Source: Candidatus Dojkabacteria bacterium
Lineage (GTDB): Bacteria; Patescibacteriota; Dojkabacteria; SC72
Length of the DNA stretch: 64,000 nucleotides
Assembly (NCBI GenBank): GCA_050950165.1
Contig: JBMNHC010000001.1
Span: 124,673 to 188,672 of the forward strand
Direction: 5' to 3'
The position numbers were made by a program, and so were the translations under genes. Below, in pieces: positions 1-42,958 of the stretch; position 1 is the first letter of the stretch, and each line of letters opens with the position of its first letter. The notes below the pieces were generated by a model. It was not told the origin of the DNA. It did not search any database and saw only the letters and a list, made by a program, of their open reading frames with translations.

Positions 1-1790
1 GTAAGTTAGTATTTGATAGAAATGGGAATCCTTCTTCTACTAGATTTGCTATTCAAGATAGCATTAGTGGTAAGTATATAGACTACAGTACGAAAACATT
101 GGTTGACAATGTTGTGTGGGGGACATACAACTCATGGGGAGCAACAAATGGGTTACTAATATCTACTTTGGATCCAGGAGTACAGTATACATTTAGGATA
201 AAGGCTATAAACGGTGCAAATGTAGAAACGAACTTCGTAGAAGGAAATACAGGAGCTACATACTCAATAATATTAAATAAAGCAGAGGGCATTGAAACAG
301 TTTTAGTAGATGATAAGGATGTAGATGTTAGCAATACAAGTGGAGCACAAACAGGAGAGCAAAAGATCAGAGTATTACAAGAAAATTACATAGTAGCAGA
401 CGTTCCAATATCTTTTAGTCAAAACAGAGATTGGAGTAATGCTGTTATAGAGAGTTCCATCTTGGAAGGTAAGTCTGTAGTAAAGTTAGATGATTCCCAC
501 GGTCTTTCAGGAACATTTACAATGTATGTTATAAAGAAAGAAAAGGATAACAGTTTTAGAATATGTCCTCATGCAAAAACATTAGCAGAGGTAAACAATA
601 CATGTCCAGAAGGAGTACTTTATACTGGTACTTTCCCCCAAAAGCTTAAAGTATTAAATAATGAGGTGACTGTATCTCAAGCATCACTTTCAGGAACTAC
701 ATATTGGATAGCAGATGGAATTAGTGGAACTGGTGGACAGGGAGAGTTTATTGACAAGACTACTACATCAACCACTAGTAGTAATCTCGTAACACAAGTT
801 ACTACATCAGTACAACAATTCTTCTCAAACACTCAAGTTCTATTAGATAAAACTGTATTGGGGAATATATCGGAAAAAGAACTAACTACAGTATCTGCAA
901 CTACTGCAGCAGTTACTGTTTCCGTTGGAGTTGTATCTGCACTAAGTGGTATACAACAAATCGGATATGGAATTTCTCAAATCTTTATTAATTTGTTTAG
1001 CTCTTTAGGCTTCAGAAGAAAGAGACATAACGCGGGATATGTTTATGATTCTGTCACAAGATCTCCAATCCAACAAGCTATAATTAGAATATATGATTCC
1101 AATCATAAGTTAATAGACACATCCGTAACAGATGGATTTGGATATTGGAGAAGTTCTGCTCCTACTGGAGAGTACACTCTTGATATTAAAAAGAGAGAGT
1201 ATATATTCCCTTCCTCTCTGATACCAGGTAAACAAGACTATCCTCTTACAAATATATACCATGGTGGCAAAATACATATGAAAGAAGGAGAGACAAATAT
1301 TGTGATTCCACTAGATCCTAACAAAGAAGTAATAGGGAAAAAGGTCTTAACTTTCTCAAGAGGGGTCTTCTCTGTTACCTTACCAATACTTAATATTGCA
1401 CTCTTTACAGCAGGTATTACAATAGCTATCTATGTATATCAAAAGAATACAAGTGTTGTTAATCTCATTATTTTACTTCTTTACATCCCAACAATATTTA
1501 CTCTAGTTCAAAGTATTTTAAACCTAAGAAGTAAAAAGGGGACTGTAAAATATTCTGATGGCACTCCTGCAACAAATATCACCTTACTTCTTAAGGAAAA
1601 GGATTTTGATAAAGTAATTTCTAAGAGGGTAACAGATGAGAAAGGTAAGTACTCTTTTGATATTCTAGAGGAAGGAAAGTACGCAATTGAAAGTGCAGAT
1701 AGTAAGATACAAATTATTGAAGGAGAAACAGAAATTATTGCTAAAAAGAGGAAAATCGTCTATAATAGGCTTATAGTAAAAAAGGTGTAA
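1..1790 (+). CDS. 5'-truncated surface protein. It has an FN3-like beta-rich N-terminal region, a TM segment, a carboxypeptidase-regulatory-like (transthyretin-like) domain, TM helices and a second CarbopepD_reg-like domain. It is a paralog of 8184..10268.
   Basis: The frame stays open back to base 1, and an FN3-like motif (YTFRIKAINGANVETNF) is present. The C-terminal half carries GYVYDSVTRSPIQQAIIRIYD...VTDGFGYW...GEYTL and GTVKYSDGTPATNITLLL...RVTDEKGKYSF motifs with hydrophobic helices between them. It aligns clearly with the C-terminus of the 8184..10268 product. Confidence 0.6.
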   Translation, partial: KLVFDRNGNPSSTRFAIQDSISGKYIDYSTKTLVDNVVWGTYNSWGATNGLLISTLDPGVQYTFRIKAINGANVETNFVEGNTGATYSIILNKAEGIETVLVDDKDVDVSNTSGAQTGEQKIRVLQENYIVADVPISFSQNRDWSNAVIESSILEGKSVVKLDDSHGLSGTFTMYVIKKEKDNSFRICPHAKTLAEVNNTCPEGVLYTGTFPQKLKVLNNEVTVSQASLSGTTYWIADGISGTGGQGEFIDKTTTSTTSSNLVTQVTTSVQQFFSNTQVLLDKTVLGNISEKELTTVSATTAAVTVSVGVVSALSGIQQIGYGISQIFINLFSSLGFRRKRHNAGYVYDSVTRSPIQQAIIRIYDSNHKLIDTSVTDGFGYWRSSAPTGEYTLDIKKREYIFPSSLIPGKQDYPLTNIYHGGKIHMKEGETNIVIPLDPNKEVIGKKVLTFSRGVFSVTLPILNIALFTAGITIAIYVYQKNTSVVNLIILLLYIPTIFTLVQSILNLRSKKGTVKYSDGTPATNITLLLKEKDFDKVISKRVTDEKGKYSFDILEEGKYAIESADSKIQIIEGETEIIAKKRKIVYNRLIVKKV

Positions 1791-4850: not shown

Positions 4851-5495
4851 ATGAAATTTGAAGATTTTAAAAGTTTACAAGAAATTCATGAATATTTTGC
4901 TGTTCATAATAGTTGTAAGCTAAAGAAAAGTGCTACCCAACCTGTATATGAGATAAACCCTCCTAAAAAAGGGATTGTCTTCATTGGAGAAGCTCCTGGA
5001 CAAAATGAAGACAAGCAAGGAAAACCTTTTGTTGGTGCAGCAGGAAAACTTCTTAATGAATTACTCGAAGGTTCGGGACTTAAACGAGATGATGTCTATG
5101 TTACGAATACAGTAAAATACAGGCCACCAGCTAACAGAGAGCCTCTACCAGAAGAGAAAGAGGCATGTAGAGTATGGGTTAACTATGAACTGCTTTTCAT
5201 TAAACCAAAAGTTATTATCCCTCTTGGTAGGCATGCACTTGAGAGTTTCATTCCTGGTCTAAAAATCTCCTCTGCTCATGGACAGGTATATGAACATAAA
5301 AGTGGAATTCCCATTTTTGCCATGTATCATCCAGCTGTAGCACTTTACAATCCTACTCTGAAAGCTACCTTGATTGAAGATTTCAAAAGGTTAAAGAGAT
5401 TCCTTCAAGGAAAGATAAAGGTTGTAAAACAAGAAGATGAGGGAGATTTCTCGAAAGAGAAAGAGTCTCTTGTTGATGCTTTGCTAAAGCTTTAA
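4851..5495 (+). CDS. udg: Uracil-DNA glycosylase, family 4.
   Basis: Motifs GEAPGQNEDKQGKPFVGAAGKLL and the C-terminal HPAVALYNP match the family-4 UDG signature. Confidence 0.8.
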   Translation: MKFEDFKSLQEIHEYFAVHNSCKLKKSATQPVYEINPPKKGIVFIGEAPGQNEDKQGKPFVGAAGKLLNELLEGSGLKRDDVYVTNTVKYRPPANREPLPEEKEACRVWVNYELLFIKPKVIIPLGRHALESFIPGLKISSAHGQVYEHKSGIPIFAMYHPAVALYNPTLKATLIEDFKRLKRFLQGKIKVVKQEDEGDFSKEKESLVDALLKL

Positions 5496-6088
5496 TTACT
5501 CCAGCCTACATCATAAAAAATCTTTTCTGCTGCGGTTTCATACTCCATAATCTCTGTTGCGTTAAACCAAAGTCCTATTTCTCTCTCAGCATTTTCTACA
5601 CTATCCGATGCGTGAAGCATAGATCTCGTAACCCTCTTTTGCTCATCTGCCAACGCAAAAGAATCTAGCGAGAAATCGGCTCTAATTGTTCCAACATCAC
5701 CATCTGCAGGACTTGTACTACCAAGCATTTTACGAACACCACTAATAACTCCAAAGCCTTGTAGCACAACAGCAATTACAGGTCCACATGTAAGATAGCT
5801 AATATTAGATTCTCTTACCCATTTACCTCTTGCTAAACTATCCCAATTAGTTACATCCTCTCCTCTTGCGATTGCACCTTTTTTTGCTTTCTCTCCTACC
5901 TCTATCAAATACTCTTTTTTATCCTCATAGTGCTTGCCTACTAGTTCTGGGCTAGGTCTTAACATCTTCATTCCTACAATCTTAAAACCTTTTCTCTCAA
6001 ACCTGCTCACTATCTCACCAACAATCTGTCTCTGGACCACATCTGGCTTGAAAATAACTAACGTCTTCTCTTTATTTTTTGCAAACAT
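5492..6088 (-). CDS. ndk: Nucleoside diphosphate kinase with insertions/extension (198 aa).
   Basis: N-terminal TLVIFKPDVVQR..GEIVSRFERKGFKIVGMK and active-site LHASDSVENAEREIGLWF are present. Confidence 0.85.
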   Translation of the reverse strand: MFAKNKEKTLVIFKPDVVQRQIVGEIVSRFERKGFKIVGMKMLRPSPELVGKHYEDKKEYLIEVGEKAKKGAIARGEDVTNWDSLARGKWVRESNISYLTCGPVIAVVLQGFGVISGVRKMLGSTSPADGDVGTIRADFSLDSFALADEQKRVTRSMLHASDSVENAEREIGLWFNATEIMEYETAAEKIFYDVGWSN

Positions 6089-6162
6089 ATGACTCCTACT
6101 TAATTTATTTACCCATATCTTACAACCTCTCCATTCTAAATGAAACCACTCTCGTTAATAAG

Positions 6163-6443
6163 GTGTGTCCCAGGTATGTCCCCCTGTTTTGCTTGAATAA
6201 GACCATCCTACCACGTTCGTGCGTTGTTTTCTGTTCGGTCTATCCTCAAAAAAACGGTCGGAATCGGGAATAAACTTTGTTGTCCTGCGATTTCGTGGGG
6301 ACAGACCTAGGACAGACCTGCGGTATGGGAATTGGATAAACTTTCGGGAGGGGACAGAGTTGGGACAGACCTGCGATGCGAGGAATCGGGGAAGCGATCG
6401 AAGAGGGACGGACCTGGGACAGACCTGGGGTAGCTGGTATAAT
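6163..6443. promoter_or_regulatory. GC-rich divergent promoter region containing eight GGGACAGACCT-like 11-bp direct-repeat half-sites. Three tandem ~54-bp units sit at 6298-6320, 6351-6373 and 6405-6427. One inverted copy sits at 6163-6185. The array ends in an extended -10 box TGGTATAAT (6435-6443), 5 nt before the elp3 ATG.
   Basis: The repeats were read directly: GGGACAGACCTAGGACAGACCTG, GGGACAGAGTTGGGACAGACCTG and GGGACGGACCTGGGACAGACCTG, with reverse-complement GGGGGACATACCTGGGACACAC upstream of ndk. Local GC is ~50% against ~32% background. Confidence 0.55.
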
Positions 6444-6448
6444 ACGGG

Positions 6449-8047
6449 ATGGATGATTTTAAAAAGATTTTTGGGGAGATAGGGAGGTTGAGGTGTTGGC
6501 GGGAGGAGAGTTTGCAACGGATTTTGAAGCGGTTTCCGAAGGAAGGTAGGGGTTTGTACAGGCATGATGAGTTGGTAGAGGCATATAGGAGGTTGGTTAA
6601 GCAAAATGTGTTGGTGAGAGATGAGGTGGTAGAGAAGCAGATTAGGATGAAGCCGACAAGGACGCTTTCGGGTGTTGCTACGGTAGCGGTGTTGATGAAG
6701 CCGTTTGGGTGTCCTGGGCAGTGCATATTCTGTCCAAATGAGCCGAATATGCCCAAATCATATATTGCTAGCGAGCCAGGAGCTCAAAGAGCTTCAAAAC
6801 ATGGTTTTGATCCTTTTGCTCAGGTATACAACCGTATTAAAGCACTACAAAATATTGGGCATAATACGGATAAGGTGGAGTTAATAATTTTGGGTGGTAC
6901 ATGCTCTGTATATCCAGAACGATATATTGTCTGGTTTGTTAAAAGATGTTTTGATGCGATGAACAGTTTTGGTACATCCCGCTATAACACCGAAGACGAA
7001 GGAATTGAGGCAATAACATGGGAAAAACTTCTTGAAGTCCAAAAAATAAACGAAACAGAAGTTTGTAGAAATGTAGGGGTAGTCTTAGAAACAAGGCCTG
7101 ATTACATAACGGAGGAAGAAGTCAGAAGACTACGAAGACTAGGAGCAACAAAAGTACAGATAGGGATACAAAGCCTCAATAACAAAATACTAAGAGAAAA
7201 TAGGAGGGGGCACACTACTAAAGAAACGAAAGAGGCATTTAAACTGCTTAGATTGGCAGGTTTCAAGATACACGCTCACTGGATGCCTAATCTCTTCGGT
7301 TCTACTGTTAAAAAAGATATAAGGGATTTCAAACGGCTATGGAAAAAAGAGTACCTTCCTGATGAACTAAAAATCTACCCTACTTCGATAATAAAAAATA
7401 CATTACTAGAACAATATTACCAAGATGGTAAATACAAACCATATACAAAAGAAGAGCTACTCTCTCTTTTTGTAAACATACTACCTAAAACTCCAAGATT
7501 TGTTAGGTTAACCAGAATCATTAGAGATATTCCTTCTAATGAGATAGTGGATGGAAATAAACTTACTAACTTCAGAGAGATAGCCGAAAAAGAAATCAAA
7601 AAACTTAATAAAAAGATTCAGGATATTAGAAGCAGAGAGATAAGGGGAGAGAAAATTACATGGAATAATATAGAATTGGAAACTATCAAATACAAAACGA
7701 CAGTATCAACAGAGTACTTCATTTCATACAAAACAAAAGATACAGATAAGATATGTGCTTTCCTAAGACTCTCCATACCAAAAGTTAAACCTTTTATAAA
7801 AGAGATATCGGACTCTACCATGATTAGAGAGGTACATGTATATGGGCCTCTTGTTAATATAGGGGAAGATGGTGGTGGGCAATCACAACATTCAGGGCTA
7901 GGTAAAAGAATGATAGAGATAGCTCAGCAGATATCTTTAGATAGAGGTTTTCAAAAGATGTCAGTAATATCTGCAGTAGGTACTAAGGAGTATTACAGAA
8001 AGAGAGGGTTTAAGGATAATGGTCTTTACATGACCAAAGAAGTCTAG
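6449..8047 (+). CDS. elp3: Elp3-like radical SAM plus GNAT acetyltransferase (tRNA uridine(34) carboxymethyl/acetyltransferase homolog).
   Basis: The radical SAM cluster motif is VAVLMKPFGCPGQCIFCPN. The Elp3-type spacer reads KVELIILGGTCSVYPERY. The C-terminal GNAT reads HSGLGKRMIEIAQQISLDRGFQKMSVISAVGTKEYYRKRGF. Confidence 0.85.
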   Translation: MDDFKKIFGEIGRLRCWREESLQRILKRFPKEGRGLYRHDELVEAYRRLVKQNVLVRDEVVEKQIRMKPTRTLSGVATVAVLMKPFGCPGQCIFCPNEPNMPKSYIASEPGAQRASKHGFDPFAQVYNRIKALQNIGHNTDKVELIILGGTCSVYPERYIVWFVKRCFDAMNSFGTSRYNTEDEGIEAITWEKLLEVQKINETEVCRNVGVVLETRPDYITEEEVRRLRRLGATKVQIGIQSLNNKILRENRRGHTTKETKEAFKLLRLAGFKIHAHWMPNLFGSTVKKDIRDFKRLWKKEYLPDELKIYPTSIIKNTLLEQYYQDGKYKPYTKEELLSLFVNILPKTPRFVRLTRIIRDIPSNEIVDGNKLTNFREIAEKEIKKLNKKIQDIRSREIRGEKITWNNIELETIKYKTTVSTEYFISYKTKDTDKICAFLRLSIPKVKPFIKEISDSTMIREVHVYGPLVNIGEDGGGQSQHSGLGKRMIEIAQQISLDRGFQKMSVISAVGTKEYYRKRGFKDNGLYMTKEV

Positions 8048-8064
8048 AGAATTATAAGGAAATA

Positions 8065-8137
8065 TGGGTGTACAGGGGCTCGAACCCTGAACCTAACGGT
8101 TAAGAGCCGTTTGCTCTACCAGTTGAGCTACACACCC
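8065..8137 (-). tRNA. tRNA-Lys, anticodon CUU, 73 nt, CCA not encoded.
   Basis: The reverse complement is GGGTGTGTAGCTCAACTGGTAGAGCAAACGGCTCTTAACCGTTAGGTTCAGGGTTCGAGCCCCTGTACACCCA. It folds as a cloverleaf with anticodon loop CTCTTAA and T-loop TTCGAGC. Confidence 0.85.
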
Positions 8138-8183
8138 ATTTCAGTTAAGCATAATATCATATAGAAAGGAGATTTTTCAATAC

Positions 8184-10268
8184 TTACACTTTTAAGACAA
8201 TATCTTTCGTAATCAATATCTCTTTCTTAGCAAATACCTCGTTACCACCTTTAATATCCTCAACTATATAAGTAGGATCTAAAATCTCTACATAGTAACG
8301 ACCCTCACCAACAAAAAATCTGTATCTACCATGTGCATCTGTGACTCTCTTTGCAATAATCTTGTCAAACTCCGCCTCCCTTAAAGCAACAGATATGCCC
8401 TCTAAACGATTACCATCTGTATCTTTAACAATCCCATATATATCTCTACTAAAGAATATATTGCGTAATATTAGGAAGAAGGTTGGAACAAACAGAAGTA
8501 AAACAAGAAGAGATAGTGTGGATGGTTGACTGTAATATGTATAGAAAGCCAAAGTGATACCTACCAAGAACAACAGAACATGTAGCAAATGAACAAGAAA
8601 CTTTGTTCTCGTCCAAAATGCCTCTAACTTTATTCTTAACTCTGATACCTCTAGTGGATCCATAGGGATAGCGAAATTAATCTCAGTATCACTTTTAATA
8701 TCAAAAAAGTCTCCATGATATACATTAGTAATAGGGGGGTCCTCACTACCAAATACTACCTTAGAAGGAAAAACATACCTCGCTGCTCTCGCCTCTATCC
8801 TGTATCTACCATCCGTTAGTTTCGCAGTAAAGTACCCTTTACTATCCGTCACATCAGTCCAAACCATTCTATTCTCTTCCGTAAATATCCTAACTATCGC
8901 TTGAGATATCGGCTCTTTACTAACTGCATCATATACATACCCAACAGGCTTAGCACCCTTCCTAAACCCAAACAGAGAAAGAATATTTAGTAGGAACTGT
9001 AAAAGAAAATATGGCATAGATGCTAAAGTACCAGCTGCAACTACAACAGCAGAAGTAGCCGTCACAACAGACGTAGCAGTTGTAACTCTCTCTAAATCCT
9101 TTGCATCTAACTTCCCAACGGTATCATCTAAAATAACGGTAATATCATCAATAACTTTCTCTACCCTATCAATAATTGAAGGCACAGGCGGTACTGGAGG
9201 AGTTGGCTTATCAGGAGGCCTTACTTCCTCTACAGGAATAACTAAACTAATATCACAAAACCTAGTTAGATTACCTGCAGAATCAGTAGCCTCTACACAA
9301 AATTTGTACCTCTCTTTCAAGTAAGTATCAGATACCCTCTCCAAATCCCCTAACCTAATCTTTACCGTCATTAACTCTCCCTCCAAGTTATAATTGGTTG
9401 TACAAGTAACTAAACTCTGTTCTGAATTAAGACAGTAAAACTTCGCTTCATTAATCTGCAAGTTATCCTTTACCCTAATTAAAAATGTTAATTCATAATT
9501 ACTCTCCCAAGAAGTAGTAGTATTCTCACCAATATCTCCCATATCTAATACCTCTACCACAGGAGATTGAGCATCCTGTACACTGTAAACTACATTCGAC
9601 CAAGCACTAACCCCACCATATGCATTGTGAGCCCTAACTCTATAAAAATACATCTTCTCATTTTCCAAATTTGTAAAATTAAAAGATGTAGCAGATATCT
9701 GCGTTGCCTGTGCCTTCAACACACTAAAATCTGAATACTCACTAACCTGTACAGTATACTTGTAGTTAGGACCTAGGCTATCCCACATAACCATATTACT
9801 AAAATCCTTAGTATACTGAGGCTCTGCAAGCATGTTAGGAACAGGAACAGGAACTACATACAATGTCTTACAACTCTGAATAAAAATATCATATCCAAAA
9901 GTAGTATCCTTAGCACAAACAGTATATGTCCCTGGTACAGAAGCAGATACACTACCAGATGTTCTACCAGTAGCATCTGTTAATGACAAAGGCTGAACTA
10001 TATTCAAACCACTACCATATATCACTATCTGACGACCAGCAATTCCCACACCACCTGAAGAGAGAACCCTAACCTCAACAATAGCGGGCTGATATATCTC
10101 AACAGTATTAGGAGTAACTGTAACAGTGGAATACAAATCTACATTAATATTTGCAGAAACCACAACCGAGTTATTAGACGGATCTAAAGGCTGTGCAAAA
10201 GAAACAGATACTAAACCAGTAGTCGTTAGAAAAAGAAACAATATTATTAAGGCAGTTTTAATTTTCAT
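8184..10268 (-). CDS. Surface protein (694 aa) with signal peptide, FN3/Ig-like beta-rich ectodomain, a Pro-rich linker, a TM segment, a CarbopepD_reg-like domain, TM helices and a second CarbopepD_reg-like domain. Paralog of 1..1790.
   Basis: The N-terminal signal is MKIKTALIILFLFLTTTGLVSVSFA, an FN3-like motif (YFYRVRAHNAYGGVSAWS) follows, and a PPDKPTPPVPPVPS linker precedes the TM region. The C-terminal ~260 aa align with the 1..1790 product (GYVYDAVSKEPISQAIVRIF..VTDSKGYF; GIVKDTDGNRLEGISVAL..RVTDAHGRYRF). An RBS (GAGGGGA) lies upstream. Confidence 0.6.
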   Translation of the reverse strand: MKIKTALIILFLFLTTTGLVSVSFAQPLDPSNNSVVVSANINVDLYSTVTVTPNTVEIYQPAIVEVRVLSSGGVGIAGRQIVIYGSGLNIVQPLSLTDATGRTSGSVSASVPGTYTVCAKDTTFGYDIFIQSCKTLYVVPVPVPNMLAEPQYTKDFSNMVMWDSLGPNYKYTVQVSEYSDFSVLKAQATQISATSFNFTNLENEKMYFYRVRAHNAYGGVSAWSNVVYSVQDAQSPVVEVLDMGDIGENTTTSWESNYELTFLIRVKDNLQINEAKFYCLNSEQSLVTCTTNYNLEGELMTVKIRLGDLERVSDTYLKERYKFCVEATDSAGNLTRFCDISLVIPVEEVRPPDKPTPPVPPVPSIIDRVEKVIDDITVILDDTVGKLDAKDLERVTTATSVVTATSAVVVAAGTLASMPYFLLQFLLNILSLFGFRKGAKPVGYVYDAVSKEPISQAIVRIFTEENRMVWTDVTDSKGYFTAKLTDGRYRIEARAARYVFPSKVVFGSEDPPITNVYHGDFFDIKSDTEINFAIPMDPLEVSELRIKLEAFWTRTKFLVHLLHVLLFLVGITLAFYTYYSQPSTLSLLVLLLFVPTFFLILRNIFFSRDIYGIVKDTDGNRLEGISVALREAEFDKIIAKRVTDAHGRYRFFVGEGRYYVEILDPTYIVEDIKGGNEVFAKKEILITKDIVLKV

Positions 10269-27979: not shown

Positions 27980-29246
27980 CTCTGTATTCTTTTAACTTAG
28001 AATAATATACTAAATACAACACTATTACAGATATTAACTGAACAACCAATGTCACCCATACTACTCCAATATATCCATACTCTCTTACTGCCCATATATT
28101 TAGTACTACATTAATGATACCAGAAACAACATTAAGTACTGCCATAATACTTGCATGACCAGTAGAGGTAATAATGCCAGAGTTAATAGTTGCACCAGGT
28201 ATAACATTTGCATAGGTTAAAGCAATTGGAAAGAGTAAGCTCATTAAAATAGCACCAGAGTACTGAGGTAGAAGAATATGTATTGCTACTTTACTTACAA
28301 TTATGGATATCGGTATAAAGAGAATAGCTAAGAGAGAGAGATAGAGGAGTAACTTCTTAAATGCACTACGTATACTCTCATATTTTCCAGTAGAAAAAAG
28401 TTCAACAACATTAGGAGCAAGAACCTGACCAAGTACTGTAAAGGGTATTAGATACACAATATACATCTTATTAAGCAACTCATACACTGCAATCTCTTCT
28501 AGTAGATCATACTGTCCTAATATTAAGATATTTACTTTAGAAAAAAGGTAATAGCCTAAGGTAGCAATACCGAAATATATTGAATATGTACCAACATCCT
28601 TAAGTATCTTTTTATCAATTCTAAACTCTATCTTCCCATTAAAGATAAAAAGCAATGTTGTCATTATGAAAAAAAGTACAATCTGAGCAAGTATTGCACC
28701 TGTTAATCCATATGTAGAAACCAAAAGATACGATGCTAATATAGAGACAAAGCCACTAGCTAAGGTGATAATAGAAAGAATTTTAAATTTCTTTAACCCC
28801 CTATACACTCCATCAAGCAGAGATGACATAGGAGAGAGAAATACTAACGGTAGAGATACCAGAAGATATTGATAGTAATCTGGAAAGAAATTCTTACCAA
28901 AAAGCAGTGTTAAAACAAATGCTAAGGTAGATATGATTAATATAATAGTGCCAGAATTAAACAGTACTCTCTTTACTCTCTCTTTCTGCACACTATTGTA
29001 CTCCGCTATATACCTAGATGTAGCTGTAGATATTCCGAAATCTGAAAACATTACCAACAGAGTAAGAACAGAAAATACATAGTTGTAAATACCCATATCT
29101 TCTTTAGCAAGAAAGTATGCTGATATAAAAAACATTATTCCACTAGCACCTTGTTTACCAAGAATCTGAACTAATCTCCATACAAAAGATTGAGATAGTT
29201 CTCTATTTTTCTTAAATTTATGTAAAAATAACTCTATTAGATTCAT
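27969..29246 (-). CDS. Polysaccharide flippase (Wzx-like, MOP superfamily).
   Basis: It has about 12 TM helices, and its N-terminal region is typical of the Polysacc_synt family. Confidence 0.65.
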   Translation of the reverse strand: MNLIELFLHKFKKNRELSQSFVWRLVQILGKQGASGIMFFISAYFLAKEDMGIYNYVFSVLTLLVMFSDFGISTATSRYIAEYNSVQKERVKRVLFNSGTIILIISTLAFVLTLLFGKNFFPDYYQYLLVSLPLVFLSPMSSLLDGVYRGLKKFKILSIITLASGFVSILASYLLVSTYGLTGAILAQIVLFFIMTTLLFIFNGKIEFRIDKKILKDVGTYSIYFGIATLGYYLFSKVNILILGQYDLLEEIAVYELLNKMYIVYLIPFTVLGQVLAPNVVELFSTGKYESIRSAFKKLLLYLSLLAILFIPISIIVSKVAIHILLPQYSGAILMSLLFPIALTYANVIPGATINSGIITSTGHASIMAVLNVVSGIINVVLNIWAVREYGYIGVVWVTLVVQLISVIVLYLVYYSKLKEYRDEK

Positions 29247-30240
29247 ATTTAGGTGGTACTAATTTCAGTATATATCTATCAGATATCTTACGTTTACTCT
29301 GTATTACTGCTCTCTTAGAGAGTGTATCTGAAAAATCCTTAAAAAAGATATATACAGAGTAAATATATGAAAAGAATATACCAATGTAGCAAAGTTGTAT
29401 AGAGTGATATATAGCTTCAAGGAATGCTTTAAATGCAAAAAGTGTTCCCATATATATATTAGTTAATATACTAAAGTTTTTTAATATTGATTTAGCCTTA
29501 CCACTATAGTATGTTCTTTCATTCCATGCATATCTCTTACCTTCTTGTCTTCTAGCAAAGCCTAAATGGAGTATATATTCTTTATTGTAAAGATAGTTTT
29601 TATAACCATATATATTAGCTCTAGTAGAGATATCATCATCATCAAGATTAAACATCTGAGATTCATCAAATCCTCCTAATATATCCCACACAGTTTTTTG
29701 AATAAACATGGCTCCTCCTTGTGCAATGGCTATCTCTATTACATCTGTATATGCCATTATATCTTTAAAATGAATCTTAGGTTTTTTCTTCTTAACACCA
29801 AAGGGATAGTAATATGTACCGTATGTTCTAGTATATCCGTCTTTAAGTTCTTCTCTGTCTAAAAAGAATGGCATAAGGAATGCAGGATTATCTAATTTTT
29901 TATAATATTGAACAATATTAGATACAAAGTTAGGATTCTCTATTAACATATCGTCATCCAATATTAGTATGTATTTTCCTGTACTTGCTTTTACTCCTTT
30001 ATTCTTTGCTTTACTTATTCCTAAGTTTTTACCATTTTCTATTAACTTAATATTTTTCTCTTTATTCTTCTCTATTTGTTCTTTAATGTATTTAATAGTT
30101 CCGTCTGTAGATCCATTGTCTACATATATATATTCAATATCTTTATATTTTTGGTTTAGTAATGCTGGAAGAGTTTCAGTAATATATTTCAAAGAATTCC
30201 AGGTTATTATTATTAAGGATGTTTTGGTGTTCCTATCCAT
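29218..30240 (-). CDS. Glycosyltransferase family 2.
   Basis: GT2 motifs: SLIIITWNSLKYITETLPALLNQKY..IEYIYVDNGSTDGT and ILDDDM. Confidence 0.8.
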   Translation of the reverse strand: MDRNTKTSLIIITWNSLKYITETLPALLNQKYKDIEYIYVDNGSTDGTIKYIKEQIEKNKEKNIKLIENGKNLGISKAKNKGVKASTGKYILILDDDMLIENPNFVSNIVQYYKKLDNPAFLMPFFLDREELKDGYTRTYGTYYYPFGVKKKKPKIHFKDIMAYTDVIEIAIAQGGAMFIQKTVWDILGGFDESQMFNLDDDDISTRANIYGYKNYLYNKEYILHLGFARRQEGKRYAWNERTYYSGKAKSILKNFSILTNIYMGTLFAFKAFLEAIYHSIQLCYIGIFFSYIYSVYIFFKDFSDTLSKRAVIQSKRKISDRYILKLVPPKYESNRVIFT

Positions 30241-30280
30241 AAGGAATATTATATATGGCTCAATAAATAATATAAAGCAA

Positions 30281-31975
30281 CTAGTTTGCTTTCAACATTT
30301 TCTTTATTTTACCATTCCCATCTTTAACAATTTCTATATTGTTTATTAAATGTGGGACACAGATAGACTCACTATTCCAGCATCTATCACCCTCTTTAGG
30401 TTCACAAATCTCAATTTGTTGATCCACAAATACACAGTTAGTTTCAGGACTCTTATCCATCAAATTATTCCTTATTTCACTTGTCCTAACATACTGAAAT
30501 CCACTACCACTTATCACTGTAAATACAATCGCTATAAAAAATATAATAAAGATTGAGTAATCCTTCTGCTTGTAAACTTCAATGGAAACAAGAACCGATA
30601 AAATGAAAAATGTCCATATTACAGAGAATGCAAACCTTATATCTGGAGCCGTGACAAACCAAAATACTAACGAACTAATAGGTATAATTAATAGTGGAAG
30701 AAACTTATTCTTCAGTTTTGATGATACTAAAGTAAAAAGAGAAAGAATTAAACCAAAAAACAAAGGGAAAACAAAATTCAAAAATTCTAGCTTTTCTTTA
30801 ATCCACACCCTAAGCCATGCATTGTTAGATAGTACCTCTACTGGAGTCCTATGTGGCATACGAGCCCAACTTTTTATCCAGTTACTTTCCGAAGTTGCCT
30901 GATCAATTCCAACACTCCATTCAGTATTAAACCCTAATTTCGGGAAAGGATAGAGCGGAAACCCTGTTAATAGTACTCCACGAAAGACCCAAACTAACAC
31001 ACAAAAAGCTACAAACAGACCCACTAACCAGAAGCGCTTTTCTTTTAATAATGGGACCAAATTATGACTCCTAAATAGAAAATATATTCCTACTATTAAC
31101 GAAAACAATACAAACACAGCAGCACTTAACTTTATACTAAATAGCCCTCCAGATAATAAGAGTAATAATATAAATTTATCCAAAAACCTTCCTTTATTCT
31201 CAATTATTTCTATAAATATACCAATAATGACAAATTGTAATAATACAACAAATGTATCGGGGCTAGAACTTACAAGATATACTCCCTTCTTATAGAATAC
31301 AAAAGGAATTAAGAAGACAAAGACTAAAGACCAATATATATTGTAGCTAGTATTTTCCCGTTTCCATACAAGACTCCATAATTTATAACCTGTGTAAATT
31401 ACTGAAAAAACAAGCATCCCACTAGACACTATCCTAAAACTTTGAGGGATAATGTTAAGATGATCATATACTGAAACTAAAAGAAAAGAAGAATTATTAT
31501 AACCAAATCTACCATGTATATTTGCTAAGCCAAGAATTAACTCTGAACTTTGAAGCCATTTTATTGTTTGTTGATAATAGAGTCCAAAATCATATAATAA
31601 GTTTTCTGAGAATGTTTGATTAGATATCAAAATAATTAAAACTGTAGAACTTAATAAGAAAAGGTAATTTTTCTTAATCCTAGAAATTGTATACTTAACT
31701 ATTTTGGTATTTGCTAATTTAACACAAAACATCACAATTCCTATAAAGACAATCAATAAAGAAAGCACTTTACTAATAGGTAAAAACAAATGAGTTATTT
31801 GCATTAAAAAAATAAGTAATACAAACCCTATCCATAATTTGCTCCAAATAGTATCTATATCGTTCTTGCTGAATTTTTTAATAAAAATAGATCCTATACT
31901 TCCCCAACCCACCAAAGAAGTAAATAAAATAGACCATCCAAATAATAACCTAATGTATAAAAATAATATTTCCAT
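30281..31975 (-). CDS. Polytopic membrane protein (564 aa) with a C-terminal Cys-containing extracytoplasmic domain. It may be a Wzy-type polymerase/ligase or a GT-C enzyme.
   Basis: It has at least 12 hydrophobic helices with no diagnostic motif. The call rests on its position inside the glycan island. Confidence 0.35.
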   Translation of the reverse strand: MEILFLYIRLLFGWSILFTSLVGWGSIGSIFIKKFSKNDIDTIWSKLWIGFVLLIFLMQITHLFLPISKVLSLLIVFIGIVMFCVKLANTKIVKYTISRIKKNYLFLLSSTVLIILISNQTFSENLLYDFGLYYQQTIKWLQSSELILGLANIHGRFGYNNSSFLLVSVYDHLNIIPQSFRIVSSGMLVFSVIYTGYKLWSLVWKRENTSYNIYWSLVFVFLIPFVFYKKGVYLVSSSPDTFVVLLQFVIIGIFIEIIENKGRFLDKFILLLLLSGGLFSIKLSAAVFVLFSLIVGIYFLFRSHNLVPLLKEKRFWLVGLFVAFCVLVWVFRGVLLTGFPLYPFPKLGFNTEWSVGIDQATSESNWIKSWARMPHRTPVEVLSNNAWLRVWIKEKLEFLNFVFPLFFGLILSLFTLVSSKLKNKFLPLLIIPISSLVFWFVTAPDIRFAFSVIWTFFILSVLVSIEVYKQKDYSIFIIFFIAIVFTVISGSGFQYVRTSEIRNNLMDKSPETNCVFVDQQIEICEPKEGDRCWNSESICVPHLINNIEIVKDGNGKIKKMLKAN

Positions 31976-32092
31976 TACTAAAATATATTATATTTATAAT
32001 AGTTTTGAGACCATCACCATACCTCGTTTCCTTATCTTGTTCAATTATTCGCTATATTCACAACCTCCAAAGATATGATACACTAATGAGGT

Positions 32093-32677
32093 ATGAATCA
32101 AAATACCCGAGGCACAGGAATTCTTGAAGGTTTCCTTTCAACACAAAGAGCAAAACTAGCAAATAGCAAGATACCTAGTAAATATCGTAAAGGGAAAATT
32201 TTAGATATTGGGTGTGGTACAGTTCCATACTTTCTTCTTAATACAAAATTTAAAGAAAAATATGGAATCGATTATTCATTACAGAAAGATAAAAAGTATA
32301 AAGATATCTCACTCAAAAAAGAATCTATAAACTCTGGACTGCCATTTCAAAGCAATTATTTTGACATTGTAACAATGTTAGCTGTATTCGAACATATAGA
32401 GCCAGATGATCTACAAAAGCTTTTATCCGAGATACACAGAGTTCTAAAAAAGGATGGTCTATTAATCTTAACTACACCATGTGTATGGACAGACCGATTA
32501 CTCCGTTTTCTTGCAAGTTTAAATTTTGTTAGCAAGGAAGAAATAGAGGAACACAAAGGTGCATATTCTCACAAAGATATAAAGAGATACCTTAAACTAG
32601 GTAACTTTAAAGACGAAGATATTGAGCTTGGCTATTTTGAGCTATGGATGAATAATTGGGCTATTGCAAAAAAGTAA
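32093..32677 (+). CDS. Class I SAM-dependent methyltransferase.
   Basis: Motif I is KILDIGCGTVPYF. Motif post-II is IVTMLAVFEHIEPDD, as in Methyltransf_11/23-like families. Confidence 0.7.
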   Translation: MNQNTRGTGILEGFLSTQRAKLANSKIPSKYRKGKILDIGCGTVPYFLLNTKFKEKYGIDYSLQKDKKYKDISLKKESINSGLPFQSNYFDIVTMLAVFEHIEPDDLQKLLSEIHRVLKKDGLLILTTPCVWTDRLLRFLASLNFVSKEEIEEHKGAYSHKDIKRYLKLGNFKDEDIELGYFELWMNNWAIAKK

Positions 32678-32719
32678 AATATAAAACATATCCTGTACAA
32701 TAAAAATAGGCAAAGCCTC

Positions 32720-33454
32720 CTAAAACATATTATATTTAATTATTTCTATAATAGCTTTTAAACCATCACTGTATCTTATTTTCTTACCTTGTTCAATTGT
32801 TCTCGGATAATATCTGATTGGTACTATCCCCCATTTAAGAGGTTTCCCTTTTCTACTATATCTCGCTAACCTTGCCGTTATCTCTGGCTCTAATCCAAAA
32901 GAAGATTTAGCCGTTATTTTTGGAGCTATTTTTCTAACTACACTTCCTTTTATTAATTTGTAACAAACTTCCATATCTGGAATCCATTTTTTAGTTCTAG
33001 GAAAAGTAAAAATGTTAGAAACAAAACTTACAATTTTATTCCCAAGAAAGAAAGAAAGGTACAACAAGCCATTGTCTCCACCAAATCTATCCCCATATAC
33101 TACATCTAAATCCTTCGTTAATGCCCAATCTAACATATGAGATAAATCTTCTGGTTCATATTCTAGATCAGCATCTTGTATTACCACCCAATTCCCTGTT
33201 GTTTGTTGCAAACCTTTTTTAACAGATTGTGTCTTTCCCAGATTTTTTTCATTACTAATAAGGGAATACCCTTTTCTCCGTTTTATATATTCCTTGACTA
33301 TTTGCTCAGTTTTATCTTTAGAACAATCATTTATGATGATTATTTCTTTTTTATATCCATCTGGAAGAACAAAAGTCGTAACTTTCTCAAGAAGTTTCTT
33401 TATTGTCTTTTCTTCATTATATGCAGGAATAACTATTGAAAGAACTTTACTCAT
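32720..33454 (-). CDS. Polyprenyl-phosphate glycosyltransferase (GT2, DPM1/GtrB/ArnC-like).
   Basis: Motifs: LSIVIPAYNEEKTIKKLLEKV, IIIINDCSKDKT and VIQDADLEYEPEDL. Confidence 0.8.
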   Translation of the reverse strand: MSKVLSIVIPAYNEEKTIKKLLEKVTTFVLPDGYKKEIIIINDCSKDKTEQIVKEYIKRRKGYSLISNEKNLGKTQSVKKGLQQTTGNWVVIQDADLEYEPEDLSHMLDWALTKDLDVVYGDRFGGDNGLLYLSFFLGNKIVSFVSNIFTFPRTKKWIPDMEVCYKLIKGSVVRKIAPKITAKSSFGLEPEITARLARYSRKGKPLKWGIVPIRYYPRTIEQGKKIRYSDGLKAIIEIIKYNMF

Positions 33455-33869
33455 TATATTCTCTAAATAAGATTAGCTTTCTTGCAAGAAAATTATATAT
33501 CATAACAATACCAGCAGACATTGTATTTGAAAATATACTCCATATATCTAATTTATCTACCATGAAGTATACAAGAAAGGTATGCAATCCCAACCCTACT
33601 AGACTAATCATCGTAAAGATATAAAAACCTTTTGAAAGAAATTGAAGCCTGTTATCTCCTCCCTTAAATATATATTTCATACTTAAAATATAATTAAAGA
33701 TTAGAGCAGTAACAAAAGCTATTATTGTAGATATTATATAATTAACAAAGAAGATATTTTCTAAAACATAAAATAGTATAATATTAAGAAAAAATGCTAC
33801 AACCCCAACAATAAAGAAACGATAAAATTGTACAATAAGAATATTCTTTCTAAGTTTTTGAAACTCCAT
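33447..33869 (-). CDS. GtrA family membrane protein (polyprenyl-phosphate-sugar flippase-like).
   Basis: 140 aa with 4 TM helices. The N-terminal YRFFIVGVVAFFLNIILFYVL is typical of GtrA. Confidence 0.65.
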   Translation of the reverse strand: MEFQKLRKNILIVQFYRFFIVGVVAFFLNIILFYVLENIFFVNYIISTIIAFVTALIFNYILSMKYIFKGGDNRLQFLSKGFYIFTMISLVGLGLHTFLVYFMVDKLDIWSIFSNTMSAGIVMIYNFLARKLILFREYNE

Positions 33870-33958
33870 TTACCAAATTTTTCATAAATAATATCATTCT
33901 CATAATTCAATAAACTTCTCTATTTTTATCAGAATATGGTAAACTTTTCCAGAAAAAT

Positions 33959-36013
33959 ATGAACGTCTTAACTACAGAATTTTCAAAGAACAAAATAATT
34001 ATTAAAAAGAGTAGTAAAATTGCATTTATAATATCAGTTCTACTCTGCCTAATAACAGTGATTGACAAGATATCCCTTTATGGTGCTATAAACTTCTATA
34101 TTCACACTCCTGTTATATATACTCTAATATTTTTCCTTCACTTGGCAGTAGTAAAAGATGAATGGAAAAATATACAGATACTTTTCAAAGAATTACAAAA
34201 AAAGATAACAAAGGAGGATACTATAAAAATATTTTTAATTTTGTTCCCCTTTTTACTTGTAGTATTACTAAAGAATAAATTAAATGAAATCATAATAAAT
34301 CAAAACATTTTATCCTTAGAATACGATTATTTACTTATTATTATTAAAATAAAATTCTTTGCTAAAACCTTTGTTCTCTTTGTTGGTTCTATTCTTACAG
34401 CATTATTTGCAAACTATCTTAATTATTCAATTACTACTAATAAACAGAAGGAAAAAAGTAAAAAGAAGACACTTATACTATTTATCCTTCTAATAGCTCT
34501 ATTTTTATTCGTAAAAGCCTTTTTCATCTTTAACTATGACGGTAATTACCAGGATGATTGGTATCATATTGTAGCAGGGCAAAACTTTTTTCAAGATGGA
34601 ACATTTACAAAAGTAAACCAATATTTTGGTGAAGATGGATATCAAAGAGGTGCATATATGACGATTTTAACAAACTTCTTTATGTTTCTATTTGGAAGAA
34701 GTGTTGATATTGCACAGCTAGCCCCAGCGTTTATAGGATTAATAAATTTCATATTACTATTAACAATTGCAAGAGAAGTCTTTAAGAATAATATTTCTAT
34801 AATATTATTTTCATTCTTATATATTTTTAATCCCTATGTGATATTCAATCATTTATTTATAAGAATGTATGTTTTTTATGAACTTTTCTTTCTTTTAATA
34901 ATCTTTTTATCAACCTCTCTCTATAGGAGTTTGCTAGCAAAAAAGAATACTAAGATAGTCTTAGTCTTCTCAGCACTACTTCTTCTTAATTTTTTTATTT
35001 GGAAATACACAGAAGATAGGAGCACTATACTATTCCCTGTCTATTCTACGATAGGAATTTTCCTTGCTTTTTATAAAGCAATAAATCTAAAAAATTTCTT
35101 TTCAAAAATTTCACAATATATAAATAAAAATAAAAAAGTAATGATACCTATCTTGTTACTTCTTTTTGTATCCATTCTCCTTTTATTAACAGAACTCTCT
35201 TTGTTTACTGAATTGCTATGGCTAATAACACAAGGAACGAATGATGGATCAAATAGAGCTTCTTTAATTAAATTGATTTGTTATAGATTTGCACCCTTAA
35301 TGATGTATGTATTTCTCAGTTTCGTCACGATTAAAAAACATTCTGTATCAAAACAAATTTTTATTATCTTTGCTTTTGTTTCTTTAGTTTTACATATTGC
35401 ACTACCTGAAAGTTATCAGGTGATAAGAGGTTTCAATTATACATGGGGAGTACTTCTAATTGCTACAGTAATAATGATTGAGGAATTAATAAAACAAGCC
35501 GTTACATTAAAAAAGAGTTTACTACTCTTACCTTTGATATTTACATTTTTACTTTCATCATTATTAATTCCAACTATAAAAAGTTATCACAAGACTTTCC
35601 TTTCCACTGGTCCTAGTATTTTAGGAGAAGTAGCATATTATGAATTTGATAAAACATTCTCTTATTTACAAAAAGAGCACAGTAAAGATACAATTATTAG
35701 TATAACTTACAATGTTGTCCCAGATATGTATTATGGTCTACCTTCAAAATATGTTTTTAATGCTAATGGAAAAATCAGTAATTACTACTTTCCTGAAGAA
35801 ATAACTATCTTAAATACTTTAGATGAAGTAGAGTCACTAGCAAGAAAAGAGAATGTTTGTTTTTTATTAAGAGACTATACTTTTGGTGTTTTGGCTGGTT
35901 TCGATGTCGGTACATACATCATTAACAATTACTCTATCGAAAAAATTTATGAGGGGTATAGTATCTGGTGTGAAAGAACACTAGAGAATAAATTGCCCAA
36001 ATCTCTATATTAA
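33959..36013 (+). CDS. Large GT-C-like polytopic membrane glycosyltransferase (684 aa), a presumed partner of the adjacent GT2/GtrA genes.
   Basis: It has more than 12 TM helices and a C-terminal soluble domain. The call rests on the GtrA-GT2 neighbourhood; the motif evidence is weak. Confidence 0.45.
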   Translation: MNVLTTEFSKNKIIIKKSSKIAFIISVLLCLITVIDKISLYGAINFYIHTPVIYTLIFFLHLAVVKDEWKNIQILFKELQKKITKEDTIKIFLILFPFLLVVLLKNKLNEIIINQNILSLEYDYLLIIIKIKFFAKTFVLFVGSILTALFANYLNYSITTNKQKEKSKKKTLILFILLIALFLFVKAFFIFNYDGNYQDDWYHIVAGQNFFQDGTFTKVNQYFGEDGYQRGAYMTILTNFFMFLFGRSVDIAQLAPAFIGLINFILLLTIAREVFKNNISIILFSFLYIFNPYVIFNHLFIRMYVFYELFFLLIIFLSTSLYRSLLAKKNTKIVLVFSALLLLNFFIWKYTEDRSTILFPVYSTIGIFLAFYKAINLKNFFSKISQYINKNKKVMIPILLLLFVSILLLLTELSLFTELLWLITQGTNDGSNRASLIKLICYRFAPLMMYVFLSFVTIKKHSVSKQIFIIFAFVSLVLHIALPESYQVIRGFNYTWGVLLIATVIMIEELIKQAVTLKKSLLLLPLIFTFLLSSLLIPTIKSYHKTFLSTGPSILGEVAYYEFDKTFSYLQKEHSKDTIISITYNVVPDMYYGLPSKYVFNANGKISNYYFPEEITILNTLDEVESLARKENVCFLLRDYTFGVLAGFDVGTYIINNYSIEKIYEGYSIWCERTLENKLPKSLY

Positions 36014-37114: not shown

Positions 37115-37126
37115 AAATAAAATTTT

Positions 37127-38050: not shown

Positions 38051-38054
38051 ATTT

Positions 38055-39383: not shown

Positions 39384-40135
39384 TAGTAATAAAAAACACT
39401 TAAAAATAATTTGAAGTAAGTAAATAATTTATAAACACAAAAGAATAGTATTCCATATCTATCTTTTATTACAACACTTGTATCCCCATAAGATCTTCTC
39501 AAATCTGAACTTACTCCATCACCATCATAATCACATATAACTAAATCTATCTTTTTTACTTTATAATTACCTTCAAAAACCTTACACAATAAATCAAAAT
39601 CTGCTGCAATTCTATACTTCTCATTTAACCCTCCAACCTTATCAAATATCCTTTTCTTAATAAAAACAGCCTGTTGACTCACCTTATTACCCAATTTAAG
39701 ATTAAACTTTGTTAAAGTTCTATCTCTTATATAACTCTTCTCTCCATTTTTACTAACAACCCTGATCTTTCCATAAACAAGATCATCATCCTCTATAGAT
39801 TCTGTAACATTCTTAAGAACATATTTATTATAAAAAACATCTCCAGCATTTAGAAAATATAAATACTCTCCTCTTGCAACCTTAGCACCCTTATTCATTG
39901 CATTATATATACCTTCATCTCTCTCTGATACCCAATAGCTAATTTTATTATCATATCTTTTTAAAATCTCCTTCGTACCATCTGTAGAATCCCCATCTAT
40001 AACGATATATTCATAATCTTTAAAAGATTGAGTAGAAACACTCTTAATAGTTTTTTCTAAATCATCCTTAGCATTATACGAAACAGTTATTATTGAAAAT
40101 TTTGGACTACTCTTCATAAAAATAGTTCTTATCAA
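39383..40135 (-). CDS. Glycosyltransferase family 2.
   Basis: FSIITVSYNAKDDLEKTIKSVSTQSFKDYEYIVIDGDSTDGT. Confidence 0.8.
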   Translation of the reverse strand: MIRTIFMKSSPKFSIITVSYNAKDDLEKTIKSVSTQSFKDYEYIVIDGDSTDGTKEILKRYDNKISYWVSERDEGIYNAMNKGAKVARGEYLYFLNAGDVFYNKYVLKNVTESIEDDDLVYGKIRVVSKNGEKSYIRDRTLTKFNLKLGNKVSQQAVFIKKRIFDKVGGLNEKYRIAADFDLLCKVFEGNYKVKKIDLVICDYDGDGVSSDLRRSYGDTSVVIKDRYGILFFCVYKLFTYFKLFLSVFYY

Positions 40136-41204: not shown

Positions 41205-41212
41205 GAATGCTT

Positions 41213-42170: not shown

Positions 42171-42262
42171 TGATAAAAATCAATATATTAACCTTTTAAA
42201 TATACTATAATTCCTTACTCTTTTGTATTAGAATATAAAAGATTAGATTATATAGAAATCAA

Positions 42263-42949: not shown

Positions 42950-42958
42950 TTCTTTAAT

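Follow-up and report, generated by a model that had tools for sequence, protein, structure and literature searches.

The stretch of DNA analysed here (in the following called the window) comprises 64,000 nucleotides from a Candidatus Dojkabacteria bacterium (contig JBMNHC010000001.1, positions 124,673 to 188,672 of the forward strand) and contains a genuine, intact bacterial Elp3 gene, situated as follows:

6449 to 8047, plus strand: elp3, an open reading frame (ORF) with ATG start, 532 amino acids and stop codon, encoding a radical-SAM/KAT tRNA wobble-uridine carboxymethylation enzyme of the Elp3 family

According to the reading favoured here, to which a probability of about 85% is assigned, the product is a stand-alone, catalytically competent Elp3 that starts the formation of 5-carboxymethyluridine at tRNA position 34 (cm5U34), the gene is probably transcribed from a TGnTATAAT promoter as a leaderless mRNA, and the repeats in front of it constitute a strain-specific insertion related to Y1 transposases and not a conserved feature of elp3 regulation. 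Family membership, architecture, catalytic residues, fold, and vertical inheritance are observed here; activity, tRNA substrates, and the final nucleoside are what we infer from them.

Concerning the family assignment, a preliminary description made from the sequence had called the product an Elp3 homolog with a radical-SAM and a GNAT domain, and this is borne out at every level. The protein matches the NCBIfam model TIGR01211 (ELP3) with 500.4 bits (cutoff 350), with residues 56-531 aligned to model positions 46-521 of 522; the runner-up in NCBIfam, MnmL/YtqA, reaches 64 bits against its own cutoff of 180. The same description had named a different radical-SAM family without a GNAT domain, e.g., one of the HemN type, as what a profile search might find instead; models of the HemN/HemW/HemZ type yield at most 40 bits and other radical-SAM models at most 64 bits, far under their cutoffs, such that an assignment to these families is rejected. 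Both domains and the cluster-binding motif are located in the gene as follows, with reference to the Elp3 proteins of Methanocaldococcus infernus (MinElp3) and Dehalococcoides mccartyi (DmcElp3):

6707 to 7600, plus strand: radical-SAM domain, with Pfam Radical_SAM at residues 87-276 (60.9 bits) and Radical_SAM_C at residues 304-384 (70.2 bits), both above the gathering cutoff (GA)
6710 to 6733, plus strand: [4Fe-4S] motif C88-x3-C92-x2-C95 (CPGQCIFC), aligned to C90/C95/C98 of MinElp3 and C23/C27/C30 of DmcElp3
7646 to 8044, plus strand: C-terminal KAT (GNAT-fold) domain, approximately residues 400-532, with E461, H463, Q480-HSGLG-485, K486, and Y515

Among the sequences of solved structures, Elp3 is the sole family matched by the product, nearly end to end and with E values from 2e-98 to 9e-77. 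The best alignment is that with MinElp3 (E=2e-98, residues 61-531 versus 47-517), followed by DmcElp3 (E=2.5e-87) and by the human, mouse, and yeast proteins (E=1.7e-85 to 1.6e-80). The KAT domain is aligned without a break to the solved Elp3 KAT domains, including the Q/RxxGxG motif. An AlphaFold2 model based on 41 homologs (mean predicted local distance difference test score, pLDDT, 85.6; predicted template-modelling score, pTM, 0.82) agrees with the two-domain Elp3 fold and covers both domains. When compared with the PDB by Foldseek, its top 11 matches are all Elp3 chains (E=5e-42 to 3e-33, target-normalised template-modelling score, TM, 0.80-0.91); the next matches, HydE, BioB, HemN, and LipA, follow at E values of about 3e-7 and TM of about 0.3-0.5, i.e., over 25 orders of magnitude behind the Elp3 chains. 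The best query-normalised TM values, 0.81 and 0.79, were obtained with the human and yeast structures that have tRNA bound and an ordered N-terminal region. Further ORFs that overlap elp3 on the minus strand or in other frames (e.g., 6155-6604, 6307-6756, and 6219-6482) cross the upstream repeats, have low-complexity translations, and are regarded as spurious. As to nomenclature, the product name attached to TIGR01211 ('tRNA uridine(34) 5-carboxymethylaminomethyl modification ... Elp3') differs from the product given in the literature, cm5U, such that annotations derived from the name may mislead.

The catalytic residues were compared with those of MinElp3 and DmcElp3, whose sequences were rebuilt from HMMER alignments and whose numbering was set by 11 (MinElp3) and 6 (DmcElp3) published residues, all of them matching. 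Concerning the iron-sulfur cluster, a CxxxxCxxC motif had been claimed; the three cysteines are indeed present, whereas the spacing is one residue shorter (CX3CX2C), the claimed spacing being that of the archaeal MinElp3 (CPHGKCIFC). The acetyl-CoA-binding motif, also claimed before, was found as Q480-H-S-G-L-G485 (nt 7886-7903) within the aligned KAT domain. K142, E214, K273, K308, and Y310, the tunnel and active-site residues of the radical-SAM domain, correspond together with E461, H463, and Y515 to K150, E207, K266, K302, Y304, Q461, H463, and Y517 of MinElp3, and K142, K273, E461, H463, K486, and Y515 correspond to K77, K193, E386, H388, R411, and Y441 of DmcElp3. Mutation of K150, K266, Q461, or Y517 in MinElp3 and of K77, K193, E386, or Y441 in DmcElp3 abolished the acetyl-CoA hydrolysis induced by tRNA (PMC6367351), and mutation of E207, K302, or Y304 in MinElp3 abolished cm5U formation (PMC13315578). 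According to the alignment, all nine catalytic residues tested by mutation are conserved. The pattern CCC-K-E-K-K-Y...E-H-Y is moreover invariant in 78 bacterial Elp3 sequences taken from related genomes (each sharing 45% identity or more with the window protein), and the catalytic residues are likewise invariant in the 41 close homologs.

Outside the catalytic positions, none of which is affected, the protein departs from one or both of these reference enzymes in three regions, namely in the two listed below and in an insertion of 15 residues at about 176-190 relative to both MinElp3 and DmcElp3.

6449 to 6649, plus strand: N-terminal extension, residues 1-67 (residue 68 aligns to residue 3 of DmcElp3)
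7613 to 7636, plus strand: central linker, residues 389-396 (KIQDIRSR), in which the CxCxxC zinc/disulfide motif is replaced (I390, D392, S395)

The extension is basic (17 K/R versus 12 D/E, net charge +5) and is modelled as four predicted helices with pLDDT values of 73-86; eight of its positions (W17, L22, I25, K31, D40, E41, L42, and Y46) are invariant in the 41 homologs. In archaeal and eukaryotic Elp3 the N-terminus binds tRNA (for its role in MinElp3 see PMC6367351), and its presence has been tied to activity that can be induced and to a tRNA affinity approximately 30-fold higher (PMC6367351; PMC7663514). Since an extension of 65-109 residues is present in all 78 bacterial homologs examined, DmcElp3, which does not possess it, is the exception among bacteria. 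The CxCxxC motif of the linker occurs in about 14 of the 78 bacterial sequences (e.g., L021, L023, L026-L030, L032, L034, L038, L039, L063, and L066 of our set of loci) and is absent from the whole Dojkabacteria clade as well as from most other bacterial Elp3, where replacements such as I/L-x-D/E-x-x-S/A are found.

Upstream of the gene, the following promoter element is predicted:

6435 to 6443, plus strand: extended -10 element TGgTATAAT, directly after the last repeat copy and 5 nt before the ATG (10/12 in a consensus scan, with the TG)

The succession of TATAAT, 5-6 nt, and ATG is kept in the four nearest sister species that have a promoter of their own (L045, L001, L002, and L003), with the sequences gTATAATacacgATG, gTATAATacaggATG, gTATAATacggaATG, and aTATAATtcgggtATG. 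Because a -10 box situated 5-6 nt before the start codon predicts initiation at or next to the A of the ATG, elp3 is probably transcribed from this promoter as a leaderless mRNA. A Shine-Dalgarno (SD) motif was not found upstream of elp3. Among the 59 predicted starts of the window, an SD-like motif precedes five, and a -10-like hexamer lies 4-9 nt upstream of 11, such that the close position of the -10 box may be a genome-wide habit.

The spacer between elp3 and the divergent gene of nucleoside-diphosphate kinase (ndk) has a length of 360 bp; among the intergenic gaps of the window, only that at 52553-53070 (518 bp) is longer. In relatives, the spacer between ndk and elp3 ranges from 57 bp to 1.4 kb. 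Most of it is occupied by repeats:

6161 to 6426, no strand assigned: repeat element of 266 bp without ORF, in which GGGACAGACCT occurs eight times (2 mismatches or fewer), paired in tandem into 22-bp dimers of the 11-mer
6161 to 6182: inverted dimer of this element
6298 to 6319, 6351 to 6372, and 6405 to 6426: direct dimers of this element, with a spacing of 53/54 bp

Outside the element, the window contains seven matches to GGGACAGACCT, a number at chance level (six with 2 mismatches and one, at 41604, with 1 mismatch). A 98%-identical strain possesses the same array with five substitutions, and the 11-mer was found upstream of elp3 in none of the 22 other related genomes that were checked, on account of which the repeats are rejected as a conserved regulatory feature of this gene. 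The preliminary description had spoken of an unusual repeat-laden promoter; the repeats are real, but they do not make a special promoter of it, being part of a strain-specific insertion related to Y1 transposases.

The relationship to transposases emerged from a metagenome-wide scan with the degenerate 22-bp dimer, which yielded 41 contigs; most of these are single matches in high-GC DNA, close to what chance predicts for an 18-base pattern, and were disregarded. About ten contigs of low GC content (0.33-0.37), however, share the architecture found in the window, i.e., an inverted dimer, 150-500 bp, and a direct dimer. They have no genes in common with the window, except for one with the repeat beside a gene for tryptophan-tRNA ligase (TrpRS), and four low-GC contigs from one metagenome (Ga0209416) carry the repeat in different gene contexts. 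The 64-kb window itself contains one cluster. In three contigs (L092 4165-4683, L095 8770-9277, and L101 788-1295) the inverted dimers flank an ORF of 144-148 amino acids with an HUH-type motif ('ETHFHLVI'). This ORF matches Pfam Y1_Tnp with 35-40 bits (GA 23), and its best NCBIfam match by far is the REP-associated tyrosine transposase (RAYT) model NF047646, with 71.1 and 76.1 bits, just under the cutoff of 80. The same ends bound elements of 160-215 bp that contain no ORF (L097 2070-2262, L104 2177-2336, and L108 2077-2291 / L084), of which that in L097 also exhibits internal sequence similarity to the window element. The ends of this family, inverted 22-bp tandem 11-mers of the form AGGTCTGTCCTAGGTCTGTCCC ... 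GGGACAGACCTAGGACAGACCT, are found in low-GC, Dojkabacteria-like contigs. Accordingly, we read the sequence at 6161-6426 as a putative element that derives from a RAYT-like Y1 transposase element, is itself non-autonomous, and contains two additional internal copies of the end repeat. In the recent ancestry of this strain, to which it is specific, it would have entered the region separating the divergent promoters of ndk and elp3. Neither a Y1 transposase gene anywhere in the 64-kb window nor a target-site duplication around the element is visible. The 22-bp dimer folds no better than shuffled sequences (z 0.7 to -0.5), and a classic REP hairpin is not supported, the dimer being a tandem of direct 11-mers with z about 0; for this reason the element is described as working like a REP/RAYT or an IS200-derived miniature element and not as a proven member of either. 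The entire 360-bp spacer likewise folds no better than shuffles (z -1.24) and has no Rfam match at gathering level or at E<=1 that would indicate a riboswitch or structured leader.

Alternatively, the array could be a set of operators or iterons bound by a DNA-binding protein that regulates elp3, ndk, or both. The regular spacing of 53/54 bp, which places three 22-bp sites about five helical turns apart in addition to an inverted one, would suit such an array, as would the overlap of the last copy with the -35 position of the predicted elp3 promoter and the fact that in other contigs, too, a direct dimer ends 10-60 nt before a gene start. We nevertheless consider this explanation unlikely, given that the array is missing upstream of elp3 in the 22 other related genomes and shared only with the 98%-identical strain, and that the same inverted dimers bound the Y1 transposase gene (L092, L095, and L101) as well as ORF-less elements in unrelated contexts, which argues for a mobile element and not for a regulon. 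Because this repeat also forms the ends of a transposase element in unrelated contexts, the last repeat copy is not regarded as a homolog of the -35 region of the sister species (AGACTAGGG...). Even so, insertion of an element can influence expression. Where the elp3 promoter is situated, sister species exhibit other short inverted repeats, namely CCCTAGTCTAC ... GTTAGACTAGGG in L002 (approximately 5938-5990) and TAGACTAGAGTCTA in L001, and L045 possesses such repeats as well; the spacer between ndk and elp3 may therefore be a place where repeats or operators specific to a species recur.

Returning to the enzyme, its proposed mode of action follows the mechanism of the characterised Elp3 proteins (PMC6367351, PMC13315578, PMC7663514), and by homology the product would be cm5U34. 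A tRNA with U34 would be bound in the cleft between the two domains with the help of the basic N-terminal extension, and acetyl-CoA would, upon this binding, be hydrolysed by the C-terminal KAT domain. The resulting acetate or acetyl unit would then pass to the radical-SAM site via a tunnel of about 20 Å lined by E214, K308, and Y310, where the [4Fe-4S] cluster held by C88, C92, and C95 would cleave S-adenosylmethionine (SAM) to the 5'-deoxyadenosyl radical. This radical would remove one of the methyl group's hydrogen atoms, and the radical so formed would add to C5 of U34, yielding cm5U.

Several observations weigh against the reading favoured here. On the functional side, a review from 2020 (PMC7663514), which attributes Elp3 to Dehalococcoides and to no other bacterial clade, states that xcm5U34 had not been directly shown even there, and the activity of DmcElp3, the sole bacterial Elp3 to have been studied, is weak in vitro (PMC6367351). 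About 40 of the 59 predicted ORFs of the window were scanned, and no downstream partner (Trm9/Trm112-like, Ncs6-like, or other thiolation gene) was recognised among them, nor were MnmE, MnmG, or MnmA; the one small methyltransferase (32093-32677) sits within a glycosyltransferase cluster 25 kb off. On the structural side, the Pfam evidence for GNAT alone is weak (Acetyltransf_10, residues 479-524, 17.2 bits, under the cutoff of 23.6), and the CxCxxC motif of the linker is missing; the motif does not, however, define the family, since human Elp3 (IQCRDVRTRE) also lacks it. Concerning the leaderless mRNA, -10-like hexamers are common in an AT-rich genome.

Some of these points would also suit an enzyme with the Elp3 fold but with a different substrate or end product (another RNA position, another acyl donor, or free acetate used directly), for which the label cm5U34 would be wrong. 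Apart from the want of in vivo evidence for xcm5U34 in Dehalococcoides (PMC7663514) and of known downstream enzymes nearby, such an explanation can draw on the use of free acetate by MinElp3 in vitro (PMC13315578) and on the NCBIfam product name, which says 'carboxymethylaminomethyl' and not cm5. Against it, the residues by which characterised Elp3 enzymes hold acetate, SAM, acetyl-CoA, and U34 in position are conserved without exception, the N-terminal extension, which binds tRNA in homologs, is present and conserved, and the best structural match is the tRNA-bound human Elp3, such that we regard a different substrate or product as distinctly improbable.

Concerning its origin, elp3 is a vertically inherited core gene of the Dojkabacteria lineage and not a recent import, as the gene order is kept in about 20 related genomes and the tree places the protein within the Dojkabacteria clade. 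The conserved order reads TrpRS (minus), uracil-DNA glycosylase (UDG; plus), nucleoside-diphosphate kinase (NDK; minus), Elp3 (plus) ... tRNA-Lys(CUU) (minus), TM694 (minus), RecO (minus), sugar transferase (minus), and Elp3 identities in the syntenic Dojkabacteria loci range from 58% to 74%. In a rough neighbour-joining tree (529 columns, no bootstrap), the sequences of Anaerolineae and Acidobacteriota group by phylum, and first DmcElp3 and then MinElp3 branch outside the clade that unites the window protein with the 77 remaining bacterial sequences; the phylogeny with Dehalococcoides and archaeal Elp3 that had been proposed at the outset therefore places the protein, as far as such a rough tree goes, in a bacterial clade with both references outside. 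Within Candidatus Dojkabacteria the gene is under strong purifying selection.

In a scan with one genome per GTDB species, relatives of the protein were found to be encoded at at least 557 loci (species genomes), i.e., in at least 0.3% of species. The closest relatives among the matches listed (68-74% identity) come from metagenome-assembled genomes of Candidatus Dojkabacteria / WS6, with which some records titled 'uncultured Candidatus Saccharibacteria' cluster, and at 45-60% identity other Patescibacteria (WWE3, Paceibacterota), Anaerolineae and other Chloroflexota, Thermoanaerobaculia and other Acidobacteriota, and a few others are found. The protein database holds thousands of homologs, one of them 98% identical, and several with about 70% identity already bear the names 'tRNA uridine(34) ... 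radical SAM/GNAT enzyme Elp3' (NCBI) or 'elongator complex protein 3' (JGI). The earlier statement that bacterial Elp3 homologs are sporadic thus holds across Bacteria overall, but not in this class, where elp3 is a syntenic core gene, nor does it convey the at least 557 species genomes with relatives.

A recent horizontal acquisition from archaea, on a mobile island next to a tRNA gene, is very hard to reconcile with these data. It is true that the GC content at 6001-8000 (0.398) is the highest in the window (0.27-0.37 elsewhere), that the tRNA-Lys gene and a mobile-element remnant adjoin elp3, and that identity is slightly higher to the archaeal MinElp3 (41%) than to the bacterial DmcElp3 (37%). 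The gene order around elp3, however, is shared by about 20 species of Dojkabacteria, whose Elp3 identities go down to 58%, the Elp3 clades follow the phyla, and neither an integrase nor a direct repeat of the 3' end of the tRNA was seen. Least credible of all is a protein lysine acetyltransferase ('histone acetyltransferase, ELP3 family') instead of a tRNA enzyme, as suggested by the molecule name that PDB depositors gave to MinElp3 and by the GNAT fold of the C-terminal domain, given that only tRNA, and not histone or tubulin peptides, sets off acetyl-CoA hydrolysis by Elp3 from bacteria, archaea, and eukaryotes (PMC6367351) and that the radical-SAM half, which a plain protein acetyltransferase would not need, is fully conserved.

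The housekeeping context that had been claimed for elp3 is confirmed: its neighbours encode TrpRS, a family-4 UDG, NDK, RecO, and SecA. Downstream, the gene converges with a tRNA gene:

8064 to 8138, minus strand: tRNA-Lys(CUU), convergent with elp3 at a distance of 16 nt, with C34

Of 20 related loci, 15 have this tRNA gene downstream of elp3. As it possesses C34 and not U34, the adjacency is considered a matter of synteny without a substrate link; the only other tRNA gene in the window, Pro(GGG), has no U34 either. In relatives, 0.4-4 kb with variable small ORFs lie between elp3 and tRNA-Lys(CUU) (e.g., L002 7599-8781). On the other side, at least 16 relatives possess between ndk and elp3 a gene for a flavoprotein of 408 amino acids (TIGR00275, 439 bits; aminoacetone-oxidase family, HI0933-like FAD), which often ends a few bases from the start of elp3, as if co-transcribed (e.g., L002 4711-5937). 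It is absent from 6089-6448 of the window and has been lost or moved in this lineage; the spacer is not a remnant of it, as tblastn finds nothing there and the sole match in the window lies elsewhere (E=0.21).

Concerning other genes of the window, the NDK (5492-6088, minus strand) has 198 amino acids versus about 140 in typical NDK, and its profile match is split (approximately 7-59 and 86-190), implying an insertion of about 30 residues; its identity amounts to 82-92% in close Dojkabacteria relatives and falls to 65-68% where the relationship is more remote. The housekeeping block is flanked by two large proteins (99-1790, plus strand, and 8184-10268, minus strand) that carry CarboxypepD_reg / SdrD_B-like domains and are predicted to reside at the surface or in the membrane; the second also contains Big_1 and fn3 domains and is syntenic across Dojkabacteria with 40-67% identity. 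Glycosyltransferases (GT2, GT4), two Wzx-type flippases, a polyprenyl-phosphate sugar transferase, a UDP-glucose dehydrogenase, and the small methyltransferase are distributed over approximately 10900-46600, especially 28000-44000; the GC content of 0.27-0.31 at 28-44 kb versus 0.33-0.40 elsewhere hints at a variable surface-polysaccharide island.

That Elp3 enzymes occur in bacteria is already known, as are the family and its mechanism, and homologs in Dojkabacteria are already labelled as such by annotation pipelines (GenBank, IMG). Papers on patescibacterial Elp3 were not found in a literature search, in which a single co-mention concerns Thorarchaeia. The Elp3 literature searched here confines bacterial Elp3 to Dehalococcoides (PMC7663514), in contrast to the at least 557 species genomes found here. 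It is conceivable, and put forward only tentatively, that a full-length Elp3 of the archaeal and eukaryotic type, equipped with the tRNA-binding N-terminus, is a vertically inherited core enzyme in Patescibacteria and several other phyla, where it would constitute the principal or only route to xm5U34 and replace MnmE/MnmG, the canonical pathway of bacteria. If so, the picture of bacterial Elp3 as a curiosity of Dehalococcoides, truncated and weakly active, would be unrepresentative, and proteins like that of the window would be the better bacterial model; wobble decoding in ultra-small, host-dependent bacteria that use Elp3 instead of MnmE/MnmG would resemble that of archaea and eukaryotes. 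A soluble full-length bacterial Elp3 could also serve as a biochemical model. The upstream repeats document a family of RAYT-like Y1 transposase elements in genomes of the candidate phyla radiation, a small addition that introduces no new principle.

Compared with known mobile elements, the repeat element is most similar to REP/RAYT and to IS200/IS605-derived non-autonomous elements: They have in common an HUH/Y1 transposase with inverted flanking repeats, intergenic derivatives without ORF, and the lack of a target-site duplication. Unlike in REP/RAYT, the repeat unit consists here of a tandem pair of 11-mers without the hairpin typical of REPs.

Among the characterised Elp3 enzymes, DmcElp3 (PDB 5L7J/5L7L/6IA6) is the one CHARACTERISED bacterial Elp3 and the only one characterised from bacteria. 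It shares with the window protein the CX3CX2C spacing (CPGKCIYC versus CPGQCIFC here) and the equivalents of E386, H388, Y441, K77, and K193, but it lacks the entire N-terminal extension, to which its weak tRNA binding and weak in vitro activity have been linked (PMC6367351), and possesses a Zn-binding CxCxxC motif (C310/C312/C315). MinElp3 (PDB 6IA8/6IAD/6IAZ), with 41% identity over 454 aligned columns, is likewise a stand-alone enzyme with a radical-SAM and a KAT domain and has an extended basic N-terminus; the tested active-site residues are common to both except for Q461, which is E in the window protein as in DmcElp3. They differ in the cysteine spacing (CX4CX2C versus CX3CX2C) and in the linker (CRCIRC versus IQDIRS), and cm5U formation was demonstrated in vitro for MinElp3, whereas the window protein is known from its sequence and predicted structure. 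Eukaryotic Elp3 (human 8PTX_C, yeast 8ASW_C) works only within the six-subunit Elongator, of which Elp1, Elp2, and Elp4-6 were not seen in the window and are not expected in this bacterium, and it exhibits a loop spacing of the CX9CX2C type (human CPhisftgNICVYC). Despite these differences, it is the best structural match, with a TM of 0.81 when the entire model, N-terminal region included, is considered, and shares with the window protein both the catalytic residues and a linker without the CxCxxC motif.

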